64,000 nucleotides of DNA from Candidatus Omnitrophota bacterium. GTDB lineage: Bacteria > Omnitrophota > Gorgyraeia > Gygaellales > Profunditerraquicolaceae. Positions within the stretch are counted from its first letter, which is position 1; each line of letters starts with the position of its first letter. The DNA lies in assembly GCA_963805065.1 (NCBI GenBank), contig CAWDSS010000010.1:211696-275695 (forward strand), in the 5' to 3' direction. The notes below the pieces were generated by a model. It had not been told where the DNA came from. It saw only the letters and a list, made by a program, of their open reading frames with translations, and did not search any database. Position numbers and translations under genes: made by a program. Below are positions 2,336-34,048 of this stretch, one piece after another.

Positions 2336-3010
2336 TTAACTTTCTAAGACTCCGTCTATTAAATGATAAACTTTATCAGCAGTTTTTGCCAGCTCTACGT
2401 TATGCGTAACTAAGACGACTGTCATTCCATTTTGCGAATTTATTTTTTTAATCAGGGAGATTATTTCATCCCCTGTTTTAGAATCGAGGTTACCAGTAGG
2501 CTCATCGCATAAAAGCATTGCCGGGTTATTTATCAGGCCTCTTGCAATAGCGACCCTCTGTTTTTCTCCGCCTGATAATTCGCTGGGAAAATGGGTCATT
2601 CTCTCACTCAAGCCTACCTGTTTTAGTAAACCCATTGCTCTTGCTTTAGGTTCTAGGTTCTCGGTTCTGGGTTCTAGGCTTATTAATGCCGGCATAAGCA
2701 CGTTTTCCAGGACATTAAACTCCGATAGTAAATGATAAAACTGAAATACAAAGCCTATTTGCGTATTCCTTATCTTAGAAATCTCATTATCAGGCAAGGC
2801 ATAAATATCCTGTTTTTCAAAAAACACATTTCCTTCTGTTGGGCTATCCAGGCCGCCCAAAATATGCAGTAGCGTAGACTTGCCTGCACCCGAAGGCCCG
2901 GCAATTACCGCAAATTCGCCTTTTTTTATTTCAAGATCCACGCCTTTTAATACGCGCAGCTCTTTCTTACCGTTGTTATAAACCTTGTGGATGTTTTTAG
3001 CTTGCAACAT
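2336..3010 (-). CDS. lolD: lipoprotein-releasing ABC transporter ATP-binding protein LolD
   Basis: Walker A GPSGAGKST, signature LSGGEKQRVAIARGL, Walker B LLCDEPTGNLD. Paired with a LolC/E-like permease. Start placed at the internal Met (MLQAKNIHKVY). Confidence 0.75.
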   Translation of the reverse strand: MLQAKNIHKVYNNGKKELRVLKGVDLEIKKGEFAVIAGPSGAGKSTLLHILGGLDSPTEGNVFFEKQDIYALPDNEISKIRNTQIGFVFQFYHLLSEFNVLENVLMPALISLEPRTENLEPKARAMGLLKQVGLSERMTHFPSELSGGEKQRVAIARGLINNPAMLLCDEPTGNLDSKTGDEIISLIKKINSQNGMTVVLVTHNVELAKTADKVYHLIDGVLES

Positions 3011-4397: not shown

Positions 4398-5843
4398 TTA
4401 CACAACCTCAGGCCGTAATAATGGAAATAGAATCACATCTCTTATCGAAGGCTGGTCCGTAAGTAACATCACTAATCTATCTATGCCTATGCCAAGGCCT
4501 CCTGCATTAGGCATACCGTGCTCCAATGCCAGGCAATAATCTTCATCAACGTTCTTTTGCTCGTCAGCATCCAGCTCCTTAATCTCCTCTTCGAATCGTT
4601 TTCTCTGTTCAATGGGATTATTTAACTCTGAATATGCATTACCTATTTCCATTCCTGCCATATACAATTCAAACCTTTCAGAGATTAATGGATTCTCCTG
4701 TCTTGTTTTTGCCAAAGGGCACAGATACGTAAAGTAATCAGTAACCAATGTGGGATTTACGCTCATATCCTCTTCTAATATTTCCTCAATTATCTTATTA
4801 ATCTGCGAGCGGGTAAGGCGATCCTTATCCTTAGCAAATCCTTTTGCCTTTAGTTTCTTTAACATTGCCGGCACTTCATCCGATGGCTCAATATTGAATT
4901 TTTCCTTAACCATAGTGGCAAAAGATTTTTGCTGCCAGGGAGGAGTTAAATCAATAAGCTTTCCCTGATAGGTAATTTGCTCTTTACCCAGGACTTCTTT
5001 TGCTACAGAAACAATCAAATCCTGAGAGAGCTTCATCATATCTTCATAATTTGCATAAGCCTGATAAACTTCCAGCATGGTAAATTCCGGGTTATGCCGC
5101 GTAGACACCCCTTCATTCCTGAAACTGCGGTTTATTTCATATACCCTGTCTAAACCTCCTACTAAAAGGCGTTTCAAATACAGTTCGGGCGCAATCCTCA
5201 AGAATAAATCTATGTCATATTCGTTGTGGTGCGTCTTAAAAGGCCGCCCAGCTGCGCCTCCTGCAATAGAATGCATCATGGGAGTCTCAACTTCCAAGAA
5301 ACCTCTCTCTTCGAGGAAATTTCTTATTGCCTTAATGATTTTTGAGCGTATAACAAAGACTTTTCTTACTTCCTCATTGGCAATTAAGTCTAAGTAGCGC
5401 TGGCGGTAACGTATTTCCACGTCTTTTAAGCCATGCCATTTTTCCGGTAAGGGCCTTAATGCTTTGGCAAGCACTGTGAATTCTTCAACTTTAACCGTCG
5501 GTTCGCCTGTATGCGTCTTAAATAATTCGCCTTTAACCGCAATAATATCGGCTATATCCATATCTCTAAGTGTATCAAATTTATCCTGGCCCAGGTAATC
5601 TGCCTTGGCATAAAGCTGAATCCTGGCAGTAACATCCCTTAAATCCAGGAATTCCACTTTACCATGCGTGCGCTTGGCAGTAATCCTTCCGCAAAGGCTG
5701 ACTTTCTGGCCTTCCTGAAAGCTATTTACAACCTCTCCTATAGCCTCACAAGAAGCAGGAATACTGGGGAAAACAGGTATGCCTTTTGCTTTAAGAGACT
5801 CTAATTTAGCCCTTCTTTGCTGGATAATTTCATTGAGTTCCAT
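4398..5843 (-). CDS. lysS: lysyl-tRNA synthetase, class II
   Basis: 481 aa with an OB-fold N-terminal domain and class II core motifs (FLEVETPMM, YEINRSFRNEG, GLGIGIDRLVMLL). Confidence 0.9.
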   Translation of the reverse strand: MELNEIIQQRRAKLESLKAKGIPVFPSIPASCEAIGEVVNSFQEGQKVSLCGRITAKRTHGKVEFLDLRDVTARIQLYAKADYLGQDKFDTLRDMDIADIIAVKGELFKTHTGEPTVKVEEFTVLAKALRPLPEKWHGLKDVEIRYRQRYLDLIANEEVRKVFVIRSKIIKAIRNFLEERGFLEVETPMMHSIAGGAAGRPFKTHHNEYDIDLFLRIAPELYLKRLLVGGLDRVYEINRSFRNEGVSTRHNPEFTMLEVYQAYANYEDMMKLSQDLIVSVAKEVLGKEQITYQGKLIDLTPPWQQKSFATMVKEKFNIEPSDEVPAMLKKLKAKGFAKDKDRLTRSQINKIIEEILEEDMSVNPTLVTDYFTYLCPLAKTRQENPLISERFELYMAGMEIGNAYSELNNPIEQRKRFEEEIKELDADEQKNVDEDYCLALEHGMPNAGGLGIGIDRLVMLLTDQPSIRDVILFPLLRPEVV

Positions 5844-20193: not shown

Positions 20194-20221
20194 TTGACTG
20201 GAAACCGATTTAATGTAAAAT
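20194..20221 (+). promoter_or_regulatory. candidate promoter for the tRNA-Asn gene
   Basis: TTGACT-16-TAAAAT, about 48 nt upstream of the tRNA 5' end. Confidence 0.35.
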
Positions 20222-20269: not shown

Positions 20270-20600
20270 TCCCCCTTAGCTCAGTTGGTAGAGCGAGTGG
20301 CTGTGCGAGGCCAAAGGCCGAAAAGCGCAGCTCCCGCGGGAAACCGCGGCTGAAACTGCAGGAGAATTGCTGGAAGCCCATAGAAAAATATGGGTAATCA
20401 GCAGCCGAGCCTCGCAGAAAGCGAAGCACCAAACCATCCGATAGGTTTGGGTGCCTAACGCAGAAAACGAGGAAGGTTCAGAGACTATGCACCTGCTGCC
20501 TAAAGGGAAACCTATGGTAAAGATATAGTCCACTTCCGAAAGTAATTTCGGGTCAAGTGTAACCACCAGGTCCGAGGTTCGAGTCCTCGAGGGGGAGCCA
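20270..20600 (+). tRNA. tRNA-Asn(GUU) interrupted in the anticodon loop by a group I intron
   Basis: Exon 1 is 20270-20304: TCCCCCT TA GCTC AGTTGGTA GAGC G AGTGG CTGT. Exon 2 is 20560-20600: TAA CCACC AGGTC CGAGG TTCGAGT CCTCG AGGGGGA G CCA. Joined, they give a 76-nt cloverleaf with loop CTGTTAA, U1-A72, G73 and an encoded CCA. Confidence 0.8.
20305..20559 (+). ncRNA. group I intron (IC3-like, tRNA-intron type), 255 nt, no ORF
   Basis: P1 is GCUGU|GC pairing with GCGCAGC, with U.G at the splice site. P2 is CCGCGG-GAAA-CCGCGG, P7 is GACUAU/AUAGUC, J8/7 is AAGAUAUAGUC, P8 is CCUAAAGG-GAAA-CCUAUGG. The terminal nucleotide is G. The core string CAGAGACUAUGCACCUGCUGCCUAAAGGGAAACCUAUGG resembles known bacterial tRNA introns. 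Confidence 0.8.
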
Positions 20601-22244
20601 ATTCTTGTGAAAATCCGAACCTGCTTTTTTCTGGGATAGAGAGCGATAATACGTCTCAATTTCGGGAATTTGGTAAAGGGTAAGCTTAATTTTAAACCAC
20701 TTAGTTCGGATTTTAGTAATAAAAGCCCCACGTTCTTTTGGGGCTTTTTCTTTGGTAGGGTCAAATCCCCATACAGTTATCTCTTTGATCAGCAACTGGA
20801 AGAGCTCTTTTTGATCTTCTATGGGGAGAGAATTAATAATCTTGTCAAAGGAAAGCAGTGTTTTCTTAATCATCTCGGCATCAAGTATGTCCTGTTTACA
20901 GCGCTCAATATCTAAAAGCAGTTTTTCTTTTTGATTCTCAAGTAAGCCCTTTTCTTTGAGTAATGTTTTGTATTCCTCAGTAATTTCTTTTCCTACCATA
21001 TCAGCAGATTTCATAATCTTAATTAGCCTATTAACTTCGGCAGTTGTTTTACCAAGTAAATTATCGGTTTTATTCAAATCTTCTTGAAGCGGTTTAATTT
21101 TCTTTTTATTGATTTGCGTAGAATTCCTGATAGATGATTCTATTAGCGCTTTGTTTTGCCCTAAGTCTACGAGACATTTCTTAATAATATTTTCAAAATC
21201 CCTTGCCGGAAGTGCTCTTACTCTACAGGCTGAATGTTTGCCGTTATCCACAACCTTACCGCAGGCATAATAAAGGTAAGGTATGCCATTTCTATCTTTC
21301 TTACCCGCAGGATAAGGAGTCAGCAAAGTGTCGCATTCGCCGCATTTAGCAAGGCCTTTTAAAAGATGGACATGGGTATCTTTGCTGTATTCTTCCTTTT
21401 TTGGCTTTATAGGCTTTAAAAGCTTATTAGCCTTTTCCCATGTATTAGCGCTTATTATTCCTTGGTGTTCGCCTTTAAATTCTTCATTGTCAAATTGTAT
21501 AAAACCTTTATAGATAGGGTTCGCTATGACTTTCTTAATAAAGTCCTCATTGAGGCGATTCTCGCCAATATTTTTCTTATCTCCATTTTTAGTAGTTATT
21601 GTCCGGGTTTTTGTCCTGAAGCCCTTTGCATTAAGGAAATTTGCAATTTCGCTGGCTTTTCTGCCTTCAATGAAAAGATTAAAAATCTTTTTTACAGCTT
21701 GAGTCTCATGTTTATTAATCAATAATTTTTTTGTTTCTTTGTTGTAATCATAGCCAAAAGGCAACCATCCACCATGCCATTTGCCTAGACGGGCGCGCTG
21801 TTTCATTTTATCCTTTGTTTTCTCAGCAGTATTTTCCCTTTCAAATTGAGCAAAGCTAAGCAAAACATTAAGCATTAGCTTTCCCATTGCATTGGAACTA
21901 TCGAATTGCTGGGTTGCTGAAACAAACGTTACATTATGAGCTTCAAATAGATCCCATAAGCTATAAAAATCTTTAATGCTTCTGACTAAGCGTTCTATCT
22001 TATAAACTATAACAACATCAATTTTGCCGGATTTTATATCTGAAATTAGATTTTGGATACCCGGTCTTTCAAGGTCCTTACCTGAGAAACCCGGATCAGT
22101 ATAGGCGTGGATAAATTTCCAGTCTTTTTCCTTTTGGATCTCAATATAATGTTTACAGATGTCTATCTGTGAATCAATAGAGCTGTATTGTCCTGAGGCC
22201 TGTTCGTCAGTTGAGACCCTTGCATATATGAAACATTTGACCAC
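20553..22244 (-). CDS. large serine recombinase (integrase)
   Basis: N-terminal resolvase domain YARVSTDEQ...SIDSQ, a recombinase domain, a zinc ribbon CGECD...YYACG and a long coiled coil. GTG start after AAGGGGGA. The last 14 codons overlap the tRNA exon 2 on the opposite strand. Confidence 0.9.
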   Translation of the reverse strand: MVKCFIYARVSTDEQASGQYSSIDSQIDICKHYIEIQKEKDWKFIHAYTDPGFSGKDLERPGIQNLISDIKSGKIDVVIVYKIERLVRSIKDFYSLWDLFEAHNVTFVSATQQFDSSNAMGKLMLNVLLSFAQFERENTAEKTKDKMKQRARLGKWHGGWLPFGYDYNKETKKLLINKHETQAVKKIFNLFIEGRKASEIANFLNAKGFRTKTRTITTKNGDKKNIGENRLNEDFIKKVIANPIYKGFIQFDNEEFKGEHQGIISANTWEKANKLLKPIKPKKEEYSKDTHVHLLKGLAKCGECDTLLTPYPAGKKDRNGIPYLYYACGKVVDNGKHSACRVRALPARDFENIIKKCLVDLGQNKALIESSIRNSTQINKKKIKPLQEDLNKTDNLLGKTTAEVNRLIKIMKSADMVGKEITEEYKTLLKEKGLLENQKEKLLLDIERCKQDILDAEMIKKTLLSFDKIINSLPIEDQKELFQLLIKEITVWGFDPTKEKAPKERGAFITKIRTKWFKIKLTLYQIPEIETYYRSLSQKKAGSDFHKNWLPLEDSNLGPGGYT

Positions 22245-22318: not shown

Positions 22319-22449
22319 ATAAGGCTGTGTCCTTTCTTTTGGCTTTAGGGTTTTGGGTGATTTTTTGTTGGGTAAGGTATGCGGTAGCCTTCGGCAGGAT
22401 TGTTGGAAAAACCGCCTGAAGGCTTACCGCAAGCCATTAACTTTAAGCG
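22319..22449. repeat. left copy of the 131-bp inverted repeat
   Basis: Reverse complement of 28832-28962. Two mismatches lie in the central part (22396-22425) and divergence appears only in the innermost ~10 nt. Confidence 0.85.
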
Positions 22450-28831: not shown

Positions 28832-28962
28832 ACGGTTAAGTTAATGGCTTGCGGTAAGCCTTCAGGCAGTTTTTCCAACAACCCTGCCGAAGGCTACCGC
28901 ATACCTTACCCAACAAAAAATCACCCAAAACCCTAAAGCCAAAAGAAAGGACACAGCCTTAT
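28832..28962. repeat. right copy of the 131-bp inverted repeat
   Basis: See 22319-22449. The outer end includes the AT of the ATG of ORF 28961. Confidence 0.85.
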
Positions 28963-29728
28963 GAGCAAAGGAAGAATTACCAGAAAAGAGCAGGAATATA
29001 GGATTAGCGCATTGCTTAGGTTTATCTTTATTTTTAGGTTTGCTACCAGAGAGCAGCTTTATGAGTTTAGTCAAAAGAGACTTGGATTAACCTATCCGCG
29101 CTGGCTAGTTGATTACTCCACGAAACGAAACTTTATTACCTCATACCAAGAGTCAAACTTAGGGCTTAAGGTCTATTATTTAACCCAGAGAGGCCAGGGT
29201 TTTATCCACAGATACGAGCCTTTTAGCAACCGCTATTATTTCAACCACAGGCATACGGGTTTTAATACCTTTGAGCACCAAAAAGCCGTAATTGAAAGCT
29301 ACTATATCCTTTATGAGCAATCCGCTATAAAAGAATGGGCTCCAGAGTGGGTTATCAGGAAAAAATTCAGGCTGAAATCCAAGATTCCTGATGCCTTAAT
29401 AGTCTTAAATTCTGGCATGAAAATAGCCCTTGAAGTTGAAACGTGGTATAAACAGCGGGGCGAGTGGAAAGTCGTAGTCTATAAATACAAGCATGAAATG
29501 CCCAGATATGATGCTGTTTTAATCATAGCTTATTCCAGCTCTAATTATGAAGGCATCCGGGATAGGCTATTCTATATCCTGCCAGAATTCTCTGTAAAAC
29601 TATTTATTATTACGGATTTGGCTTTACTTAAACAGGGCCAGTGCTTTTACCACGGCAAACTTAGGCAGTTAGAAGAAGCCCTTAGTCTAATTAGCCAGCA
29701 GTTTAGCGATCAGCAAAGCAAGGGTTAA
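28961..29728 (+). CDS. replication-relaxation family protein (wHTH plus PD-(D/E)xK-like C-terminus)
   Basis: N-terminal RFATREQLYEF...YYLTQRGQGF and C-terminal IPDALIV...IALEVETW. Confidence 0.5.
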   Translation: MSKGRITRKEQEYRISALLRFIFIFRFATREQLYEFSQKRLGLTYPRWLVDYSTKRNFITSYQESNLGLKVYYLTQRGQGFIHRYEPFSNRYYFNHRHTGFNTFEHQKAVIESYYILYEQSAIKEWAPEWVIRKKFRLKSKIPDALIVLNSGMKIALEVETWYKQRGEWKVVVYKYKHEMPRYDAVLIIAYSSSNYEGIRDRLFYILPEFSVKLFIITDLALLKQGQCFYHGKLRQLEEALSLISQQFSDQQSKG

Positions 29729-31576: not shown

Positions 31577-31630
31577 GTTATTTAAACCGGCTATTAGCTC
31601 TACAGAAAAGTTCGGGAATCTACCCCTATC

Positions 31631-31788
31631 GGGGAGCCAATCGTAAAAATGCCCATTGTTAAACAGTGGGCATTTTTATTTAGGGCTCCCCCTCGAGGAT
31701 CCCCGAAGTGCCGCAGGCACGAAGGGGATCTTAGTTCAGGGGAGCTTGATTTTCCAACCCTCTGTGATAGAATATATTGCAGAGGGTT
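31631..31788. repeat. 158-bp composite repeat, copy 1: tRNA-end remnant, bidirectional terminator, tRNA-end inverted copy in a hairpin, promoter plus palindrome
   Basis: Near-identical to 33891-34048, with about 8 differences by eye. Confidence 0.85.
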
Positions 31789-32125: not shown

Positions 32126-32202
32126 CAGAAAAGTTCTAAACTCGTCCACGATGGGGAGCTTGTATTTCCAACCCTCTGTGATAGAATATATTGCAGAGGG
32201 TT
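32126..32202. repeat. short version of the repeat module (CAGAAAAGTT...GGGGAGC plus promoter and palindrome)
   Basis: CAGAAAAGTTCTAAACTCGTCCACGATGGGGAGC, then AACCCTCTGTGATAGAATATATTGCAGAGGGTT. Confidence 0.8.
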
Positions 32203-32249
32203 TTTATTGCTGGAAGCAGTGGAGAGGGAGAAAAAGATAGGAGGAGAAA

Positions 32250-32618: not shown

Positions 32619-32815
32619 GCGCTAATTTAGCTAAATTAGCGCAAATTCCTTTGCAAGGTCATAAAAGAGATTAGCCTCCGCACTCATCAAAAAGTTATTA
32701 AACTCGTCCAATAGGGGGAGTAAATTCTTTTTTCAGGGCTGAACTTAAAACGTTACAGCCCTTTTTGTTTGCTTGTAATTTTATGATTTGTGATAGAATA
32801 TATTGAGGAGGGTTT
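32619..32815. repeat. repeat module, copy 3: 24-nt perfect palindrome, att-like remnant, terminator, degenerate promoter and palindrome
   Basis: GCGCTAATTTAGCTAAATTAGCGC lies at 32619-32642. 32643-32720 resembles 33817-33897. The TGATAGAATATATTG core lies at 32791-32805. Confidence 0.75.
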
Positions 32816-33699: not shown

Positions 33700-33890
33700 A
33701 GTAACAATTTAAGTAATCACAGTAAATTCTTGATACAGCTTTTCCGCTTTCCCTGAAGCCAGAAAAGTTATAACCTCTTCCAATAGTACAAATTAGCGTA
33801 AATTTAGTTAAATTAGCGCAAATTCCTTTGAAAGGTCATAAAATAGAGTAGCTTCTGTGCTCAGTAAGAAGTTATTAAACTCGTCCAATA

Positions 33891-34048
33891 GGGGAGCCAA
33901 TCGTAAAAATGCCCATTGTTAAACAGTGGGCATTTTTATTTAGGGCTCCCCCTCGAGGATCCCCGAAGTGCCGAAGGCACGAAGGGGATCTTAGTTCAGG
34001 GGAGTTTGACTTCCTAACCCTCTGTGATAGAATATATTGCAGAGGGTT
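33891..34048. repeat. 158-bp composite repeat, copy 2
   Basis: See 31631-31788. Its promoter reads TTGACT-16-TAGAAT with TG at the extended -10 position. Confidence 0.85.

Follow-up and report, generated by a model that had tools for sequence, protein, structure and literature searches.

The window considered here (the whole stretch of DNA that was analyzed, 64,000 nucleotides) carries, at 20270-20600 on the forward strand, a tRNA-Asn(GUU) gene whose anticodon is split, between positions 35 and 36, by a group I intron. The gene is made up of three parts:

20270-20304 (+): exon 1, 35 nt, tRNA-Asn positions 1-35, comprising the acceptor 5' strand, the D arm, the anticodon stem 5' strand and C32 U33 G34 U35
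20305-20559 (+): intron, 255 nt, from GCGAGG... to ...CAAGTG, matched by Rfam RF00028 and by the covariance model R1 described below
20560-20600 (+): exon 2, 41 nt, tRNA-Asn positions 36-76, comprising U36 A37 A38, the anticodon stem 3' strand, the variable loop, the T arm, the acceptor 3' strand, G73 and an encoded CCA

Exon 1 (TCCCCCTTAGCTCAGTTGGTAGAGCGAGTGGCTGT) is identical to exon 1 of the Omnitrophota locus L099 and to that of intron-less tRNA-Asn genes, and exon 2 reads TAACCACC...GGGGGAGCCA. An earlier reading of this DNA from its letters alone (hereafter, the sequence-only reading) had proposed exons of 35 and 41 nt that join into an Asn cloverleaf, and its coordinates proved exact; ARAGORN identifies the ligated exons as a canonical 76-nt tRNA-Asn(gtt) with U1-A72 and G73. 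The same reading anticipated that standard tRNA finders could miss the gene, and they do: on the whole window, default ARAGORN reports only a tRNA-Ser and a tRNA-Arg, both at 42 kb, and the Rfam tRNA model, in a gathering-threshold scan, overlooks the split gene as well. When run in intron mode on the unspliced sequence, ARAGORN returns a tRNA-Thr(tgt) i(34,255), that is, the same 255-nt intron placed 2 nt further upstream. No other tRNA-Asn gene was detected by default ARAGORN in the 64-kb window.

Intron fold and splice register

A scan of the whole window with Rfam models at their gathering thresholds (50 for RF00028) yielded a single match to the Intron_gpI family (RF00028), located at 20295-20552 (+) and covering model positions 1-253 of 253 with 76.9 bits and E = 8.5e-18. 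This covariance-model check bears out the complete group I core that the sequence-only reading had discerned in the 255 nt. Helices were assigned on the basis of the Rfam alignment, of hand pairing checked in three sequences and of the minimum free energy (MFE) fold. The MFE of the precursor segment is -105.6 kcal/mol (RNAfold; z = -6.47), a stability attained by 0 of 200 dinucleotide shuffles, and the corresponding fold recovers P1, the hairpin in the P1 loop, P2, P4-P5, the P6 arm, P7 and P9.0/P9. With intron positions numbered from i1 = 20305, the elements of the core are as follows:

20299-20332 (+): P1, 8 bp, exon G30-U35 plus i1-2 (20299-20306) paired with the internal guide sequence i21-28 (20325-20332)
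20334-20349 (i30-45) (+): P2, a 6-bp stem CCGCGG/CCGCGG with a GAAA tetraloop (L2); 6/6 pairs covary, 98% paired
20356-20362 (i52-58) with 20492-20498 (i188-194) (+): P3; 5/6 pairs with changes on both sides
20368-20373 with 20398-20403 (i64-69 with i94-99) (+): P4; 99% paired, with compensatory changes
20377-20382 with 20389-20394 (i73-78 with i85-90) (+): P5; 91% paired, with compensatory changes
20404-20477 (+): P6/P6a and P6b; P6/P6a pairs i100-110 with i164-173 and covaries
20481-20488 (i177,179-184, A178 bulged; G-(bulged A)-GACUAU) with 20525-20531 (i221-227; AUAGUCC) (+): P7, forming a pseudoknot with P3
20499-20517 (i195-213) (+): P8, CCUAAA...UAUGG with a GAAA loop, read from the sequence
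20532-20535 (ACUU, i228-231) with 20555-20558 (AAGU, i251-254) (+): P9.0, 4 bp, covarying, enclosing P9
i232-247 (+): P9, CCGAAA/UUUCGG with a GUAA tetraloop, covarying
20559 (G255) (+): omega-G, with which the intron ends at the 3' splice site

A score above the family threshold, the full set of core helices, a U.G wobble in P1 and an omega-G positioned by P9.0 identify the element as a group I intron with a complete core. The wobble at the 5' splice site, U35(20304).G(20327) or U35.G23, and the terminal G20559 are those described in the sequence-only reading, which had counted 7 bp in P1, one fewer than the helix contains. The internal guide sequence harbors a GCAGC motif that is conserved in relatives, and L2 is GAAA in most homologues among the loci listed. 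A single change separates the P8 motif from CCUAAG...UAUGG, the 11-nt receptor for GAAA tetraloops, and, going by what is generally known of this receptor, P8 presumably docks L2. P7 is expected to act as the guanosine-binding helix; its 5' strand is separated from the 3' strand of P3 by only 3 nt (GCA) and, hence, the intron has no P7.1/P7.2. In the Omnitrophota loci L099 and L019 the core is near-identical to that of the window intron, and compensatory changes occur in P2, P6a, P9 and P9.0. Two insertions are specific to the window, namely a mini-hairpin in the P1 loop (GGCC-AAA-GGCC, i5-15, 20309-20319) and P6b, a long hairpin of ~46 nt that is found neither in L099 nor in L019.

Three independent tests, concerning the P1 wobble, the register of P9.0 and the sequence of intron-less genes, favor splicing between positions 35 and 36, and thus an Asn anticodon. 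In the first place, the U.G wobble in P1 is formed only by U35; U33, which precedes the alternative site, pairs with A25. Secondly, the nucleotides that follow AGUCC pair with those that precede the terminal G in a variety of combinations (AC/GU, AAG/CUU, GAG/CUC, AGG/CCU, GAA/UUC and others). Among the 66 distinct introns in the loci listed, a P9.0 of at least 2 bp is present in 53 in the register set by the terminal G and in none (0/66) when omega-G is moved 2 nt upstream, as required for Thr; a control with permuted partners gave a mean of 19.8 and a maximum of 31. The terminal nucleotide is G in all 66 and, since many of these introns end in UUG, UCG or AUG, the Thr alternative does not exist for them. 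Finally, a metagenome scan for the ligated junction (at least 120 matches) recovered 114 intron-less tRNA-Asn genes among the matches listed, all of them with U1-A72 and G73. Uninterrupted genes on at least five contigs (L130, L187, L210, L218 and L222) are 73/73 identical to the predicted spliced product, at least 14 more are 71-72/73 identical, and excision of the 255 nt in any register other than 35/36 fails to regenerate the uninterrupted sequence. The concern, raised in the sequence-only reading, that an alternative site might give a different anticodon was therefore apt in view of the Thr(UGU) call by ARAGORN, but the three tests come out for Asn. The structure of a gene split at 35/36 also supports the earlier contention that this copy depends on splicing to supply its tRNA.

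Relatives of the intron and the published class

A scan of genomes for tRNA-Asn 5' halves with a nucleotide other than T after CTGT listed at least 120 loci, of which about 70 were recognized by script as split tRNA-Asn genes, all with introns terminating in G; the scan yielded at least 66 distinct introns of the class across many phyla. From the window, L099 and L019 we built the covariance model R1, which extends from the internal guide sequence to exon 2 and comprises 38 pairs, P1 being handled separately by script. R1 returned at least 72 matches at E < 0.001, the window itself scoring 227 bits, and within split tRNA-Asn loci it gave at least 68 full-length matches and one 3'-truncated match, including the cyanobacterial Microcoleus type listed by Nakagawa et al. 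2026 (mSystems, PMC13011429). The closest relatives among the loci listed come from metagenome-assembled genomes (MAGs) of Omnitrophota (L099, 243 bits; L019, 226 bits; L001, 151 bits) and from MAGs labelled Planctomycetota (L036, Planctomycetales, 189 bits; L078, 146 bits), while cyanobacterial, Nitrospira and Patescibacteria members match the full model with 55-110 bits. Two loci contain more than one match: L046 (Nitrospira sp. CG24E) harbors two split tRNA-Asn genes 1.6 kb apart, with introns of 256 nt and 1858 nt, and L022 has a second, weaker R1 match (35.9 bits) at 4694-4905, ~1.5 kb from its split tRNA-Asn.

The fold is also supported by the R1-based alignment (A4) of at least 72 homologues, in which P7 was added as a pseudoknot to give 45 pairs. 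In this alignment 92.1% of cells are paired, as compared with 67.8% in shuffles and 32-45% with slid partners; changes on both sides occur in 35 of the 45 pairs, and the covariation score is 0.541 versus 0.151. P7, although absent from R1, is paired in 90% of cells and is almost invariant.

The combination of a tRNA-Asn host with insertion at 35/36, for which the sequence-only reading was aware of no precedent, is not new: it has been published since 2020, and self-splicing was demonstrated in 2026. Williams 2020 (bioRxiv 10.1101/2020.01.27.920355) raised the number of tRNA-intron settings from the four classical ones to 21, and Nakagawa et al. 2026 (PMC13011429) cite from that work an 'Asn.4Ug' class and its confusion with 'Thr.2Ug'. 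The latter authors described 15 tRNA-Asn 35/36 introns in Patescibacteria and, in 4,934 complete genomes, 28 introns at 35/36, which occur also in Cyanobacteriota, Nitrospirota, Bacillota_A, Bipolaricaulota and Pseudomonadota. They showed that a tRNA-Asn 35/36 intron self-splices in vitro in a GTP-dependent manner, sequenced the junction and blocked the reaction with an omega-G-to-C mutant; the gene tested had been called Thr(UGU) 33/34 by ARAGORN and tFind (PMC13011429). In the part of their Table S5 covered here, tRNA-Asn 35/36 introns are tabulated for Patescibacteria, Cyanobacteriota, Nitrospirota, Bipolaricaulota and Bacillota_A, with the cyanobacterial, Bipolaricaulota and Nitrospirota sequences assigned to subgroup IA and a compact 210-nt Bacillota_A intron to IC3; the sole Omnitrophota entry there is an fMet intron, and the same part of the supplement contains no Planctomycetota.

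The window intron is a further member of this published class, of a compact type and from a lineage that the covered part of PMC13011429 does not tabulate. It shares with the class the host gene, the site after four anticodon-loop nucleotides, U at -1, G at omega, the 2-nt ambiguity between Asn and Thr annotation and a homologous core. In contrast, 25 of the 28 published members are IA introns with an additional P7.1/P7.2 hairpin, seen in IA-labelled relatives as ~30 nt between P7 5' and P3 3', where the window intron has 3 nt and accordingly lacks the subgroup IA hallmark. Its nearest relatives, moreover, lie in Omnitrophota and Planctomycetota, for which the covered part of that source gives no tRNA-Asn case. 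The Bacillota_A intron of GCA_022846035.1 (210 nt, IC3) resembles it in site, in compactness, in a P7 that leads straight into P3', in a P8 of the CCUAAAG...AUGG type and in having no open reading frame (ORF). The similarity is nevertheless lower, for clostridial relatives match the full R1 model with 39-64 bits, whereas the closest loci of Omnitrophota and Planctomycetota among those listed reach 146-243 bits, and both P9 and the 3' end differ (...GAAG, with no clear P9.0 in simple register). With the classical IC3 introns of cyanobacterial and plastid tRNA-Leu(UAA), at 34/35, and of Azoarcus tRNA-Ile(CAU), the window intron has in common a small P1-P9 core (self-splicing in those introns) within the anticodon loop, GNRA tetraloops with a P8 receptor, P9.0 with omega-G and, probably, exon alignment through the anticodon stem, but not the host tRNA or the insertion site. 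Its architecture and the one published analogue would fit an IC3-like assignment.

The 255-nt intron contains no sense-strand ORF and, thus, no homing endonuclease. In at least twelve relatives with introns of 420-580 nt (L021, L024, L036, L040, L059, L083, L086, L088, L093, L108, L112 and L116), on the other hand, a sense ORF of ~100-125 aa occupies the P1 loop, as does a shorter one in L013. These ORFs begin 14-68 nt into the intron and carry the motifs CxxC...EFHH...CANCHRE(I/V)H; the product of the L093 ORF scores 24.3 bits with Pfam HNH (cut-off 21.4) and three others reach 17-20 bits. They are found in MAGs labelled Nitrospirota, Omnitrophota, Planctomycetota, Gammaproteobacteria, Nanoarchaeota and Patescibacteria, whereas the complete-genome survey reported endonuclease-bearing IA introns at 35/36 only in Patescibacteria (PMC13011429). 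Since longer members of its compact lineage carry such ORFs, the window copy most likely derives from a homing intron and is now immobile, having lost the endonuclease. Presence of the intron varies among relatives, as indicated by intron-less alleles with identical exons and by the partial synteny of L171, in which IspH lies upstream of an intron-less tRNA-Asn. Two further candidates were examined and discarded. An antisense ORF of 162 aa at 20276-20764 (-), which overlies the tRNA and the intron, is spurious, its partial peptide likeness to an antisense ORF of L036 (e.g. CIVSEPSS, AVSRGSC) finding its simplest explanation in the conserved RNA core. The Logan contig L122, which ends inside exon 1, had been considered as a sign of heterogeneity between intron-plus and intron-minus copies, but it breaks in a D-arm/anticodon-stem region common to other tRNAs and not at the splice junction.

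Predicted splicing reaction and competing explanations

Taken together, these results lead us to regard the locus, with a probability of roughly 0.9, as a functional tRNA-Asn(GUU) gene into which a group I ribozyme intron of the 'Asn.4Ug' class, compact and devoid of a homing endonuclease, is inserted between U35 and U36. The gene would be transcribed as a precursor of ~330 nt, in which the intron would fold into a P1-P9 core with a P3/P7 pseudoknot and the internal guide sequence would pair with the end of exon 1, so that the U35.G wobble would mark the 5' splice site. An external guanosine would then attack this site; G20559, placed by the 4-bp P9.0, would next occupy the guanosine site in P7, and the attack of exon 1 on the 3' splice site would generate a mature tRNA-Asn with the anticodon loop CU-GUU-AA. 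A P10 pairing is not apparent, so it is probably the anticodon stem that keeps the two exons together. Alignment of the exons by this stem has been reported for the Anabaena tRNA-Leu intron. Both catalysis and splicing without a protein helper are attributed to the window intron by homology.

Several points weigh against this interpretation. When P10 was looked for by eye, no stretch 5' of the internal guide sequence proved complementary to exon 2 (UAACC...). Published splicing assays concern IA-type introns of Patescibacteria, a type other than that of the compact lineage. The alignment A4 was fitted to the structure of R1 and its pairing counts are therefore inflated, yet P7 lies outside the model and the slid controls are far lower; covariation evidence for P7 itself is weak, because the helix is nearly invariant. 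Transcription, lastly, would rely on a promoter candidate that is a consensus match only:

20194-20221 (+): candidate sigma-70-like promoter, TTGACT-16-TAAAAT, 48 nt upstream of the tRNA 5' end; 10/12 matches in a consensus scan

Among other explanations, it seems unlikely to us, although worth weighing, that the intron is genuine but splices only with the aid of a protein, such as a maturase or chaperone, or under particular conditions, and is thus not strictly self-splicing. In vivo, numerous group I introns depend on proteins, and the missing P10 also speaks for such a need. Nevertheless, the core is compact and GC-rich, with three GNRA tetraloops and, in P8, an 11-nt receptor close to the canonical one, features typical of small, self-sufficient tRNA introns; the locus, besides, offers neither an intron ORF nor an obvious cofactor gene adjacent to it. 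Moreover, the 35/36 introns assayed to date self-splice with GTP alone (PMC13011429).

We give very little credit to the notion of a decayed, non-splicing relic within a tRNA pseudogene, with Asn decoding entrusted to a gene elsewhere in the genome. The P1 mini-hairpin and the ~46-nt P6b, both of them lineage-specific insertions, could be taken, like the missing endonuclease, as signs of decay, and a second tRNA-Asn is conceivable outside the 64-kb window, though default ARAGORN finds none within it. Yet all core helices are intact and made of canonical pairs, the near-identity of the core to L099 and L019 is accompanied by compensatory changes, and the exons match intron-less tRNA-Asn genes at 100% identity, which would be unexpected for a pseudogene. 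The insertions, in addition, are confined to peripheral loops (L1 and P6), where group I introns tolerate expansions.

Excision 2 nt upstream, with the 5' splice site after U33 and omega-G at 20557 to produce a tRNA-Thr with anticodon UGU, agrees with the intron-mode call of ARAGORN, with the Thr calls that tFind and ARAGORN give for several published cases (PMC13011429) and with the U before the 5' site and the G at the intron end that this register also provides, but it is barely credible, given that U33-A25 is a Watson-Crick pair instead of a wobble, that P9.0 is lost and a G stands at the shifted position in only 28 of the 66 introns among the loci listed, that the tRNA body has the U1-A72 and G73 of all listed intron-less tRNA-Asn genes, five of them identical to the Asn-register product, that the outcome would be GGCUUGUAACC, unlike the GGCUGUUAACC of intron-less genes, and that the equivalent ambiguity has been settled experimentally as Asn 35/36 (PMC13011429).

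The adjoining element, putative archaeal loci and implications

Upstream of the tRNA lie common housekeeping genes, for UbiA, a polyprenyl synthase, IspH, a ZIP transporter and a cobalamin adenosyltransferase. Downstream, a recombinase gene converges on it:

20553-22244 (-): large serine recombinase ORF, with Pfam Resolvase, Recombinase and Zn_ribbon_recom domains

The complement of exon 2 and of the last 7 nt of the intron supplies the final ~16 codons of this ORF and its stop codon, which lies 5 nt inside the intron. Reading of the sequences reveals that in intron-less alleles the TAA stop of the recombinase is the complement of U35-U36-A37, while in the window the intron changes this codon to TAC and the ORF continues for two codons into the intron. 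Beyond the recombinase, and up to about 31 kb, there follow ORFs without Pfam matches, a Toprim protein and a Fic protein, and the GC content dips to 0.32-0.36, so that the downstream region looks like an element integrated at tRNA-Asn. Homologous recombinases occupy the same position beside split tRNA-Asn genes (L001, L093 and L099) and intron-less ones (L194, L204, L131, L186 and L207), from which it follows that the element targets tRNA-Asn with or without the intron; this suggests a family of integrative elements directed to that gene. A direct repeat of the tRNA 3' half, as would be expected of an attachment (att) site, was not found in a search with a 29-mer allowing up to 3 mismatches; two inverted 16-mers were all that appeared.

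Two kinds of repeats were observed in this region. An inverted repeat of 125 nt (22319-22443 / 28838-28962, 98% complementary) encloses 6.4 kb with hypothetical ORFs and the Toprim gene; its left arm is found a little upstream of the point where the recombinase starts, and its right arm ends at the ATG of the ORF 28961-29728. The arrangement could represent an invertible segment or a duplicated promoter/operator region. An element of 164 nt, read on the - strand, is present in two copies that are 96% identical (31625-31788 and 33885-34048), together with partial copies at 32153-32208 and 32789-32815. Its parts are the hairpin AACCCTCTG...CAGAGGGTT, a long hairpin, rich in GC, whose closing stem is acceptor-like, and then a hairpin resembling an intrinsic terminator; both copies contain, in inverted orientation, the exact 16-mer TCCTCGAGGGGGAGCC, which corresponds to tRNA-Asn positions 60-75 (20584-20599). 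The repeats at 31.5-34.2 kb have no Rfam match, only chance-level matches appearing at a permissive E-value. The 164-nt elements might serve the recombinase as att-like or inversion sites, or they could represent a small RNA with a tRNA-like end.

Among the split tRNA-Asn(GUU) genes, three loci labelled Pacearchaeota or Nanoarchaeota (L005 1890-2230, L013 ~893-1400 and L112 ~2419-3000) carry at 35/36 introns of the same compact group I type (R1 scores of 106-111 bits). Their tRNA-Asn has G1-C72, as opposed to the U1-A72 of all other split or intact tRNA-Asn among the matches listed. The ORF of L112 is of the HNH type and that of L013 is shorter and possibly truncated. The three loci share the order Dim2/PNO1-like KH protein, tRNA and nitroreductase, followed by FtsZ in L005 and L013, and markers of archaeal or eukaryotic type are encoded in L005 (aIF2-beta, 104 bits) and L013 (TYW3). 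Archaeal group I introns had been found only in rRNA genes by Nawrocki et al. 2018, and a single Pacearchaeota tRNA match was dismissed as mis-binning by Williams 2020 (10.1101/2020.01.27.920355); in the three DPANN loci, group I introns may genuinely reside in archaeal tRNA genes. A further locus labelled 'Woesearchaeota' (L080) is considered bacterial on account of its sigma-70 factor and of a tRNA with U1-A72.

Overlooked by default tRNA finders and mis-typed as tRNA-Thr by intron-aware ones, a gene of this kind would lead its genome to be scored as devoid of tRNA-Asn, so that estimates of completeness and inferences on codon usage would be affected, a point that has already been published. 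What the copy in the window adds to a documented class is a further host lineage, probably Omnitrophota to judge from its nearest tRNA and intron relatives, and a variant of compact type, and the element abutting the tRNA and the DPANN introns are of more interest than the window intron itself. The wider scan, with its at least 66 distinct introns, suggests that this class occurs far more widely than was apparent from complete genomes, and that it has HNH-bearing members outside the Patescibacteria; it may also extend to archaeal tRNA genes. We hold it to be possible, if rather less than probable, that a compact, IC3-like and HNH-associated lineage without P7.1/P7.2 is common to Omnitrophota, Planctomycetota and the DPANN loci L005, L013 and L112, having spread by homing across phyla and domains to a single anticodon-loop site, and that the window copy is perhaps the sole tRNA-Asn gene of a genome of ~1.2 Mb. 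Were it indeed the only one, all Asn decoding in this organism would depend on the activity of a ribozyme.

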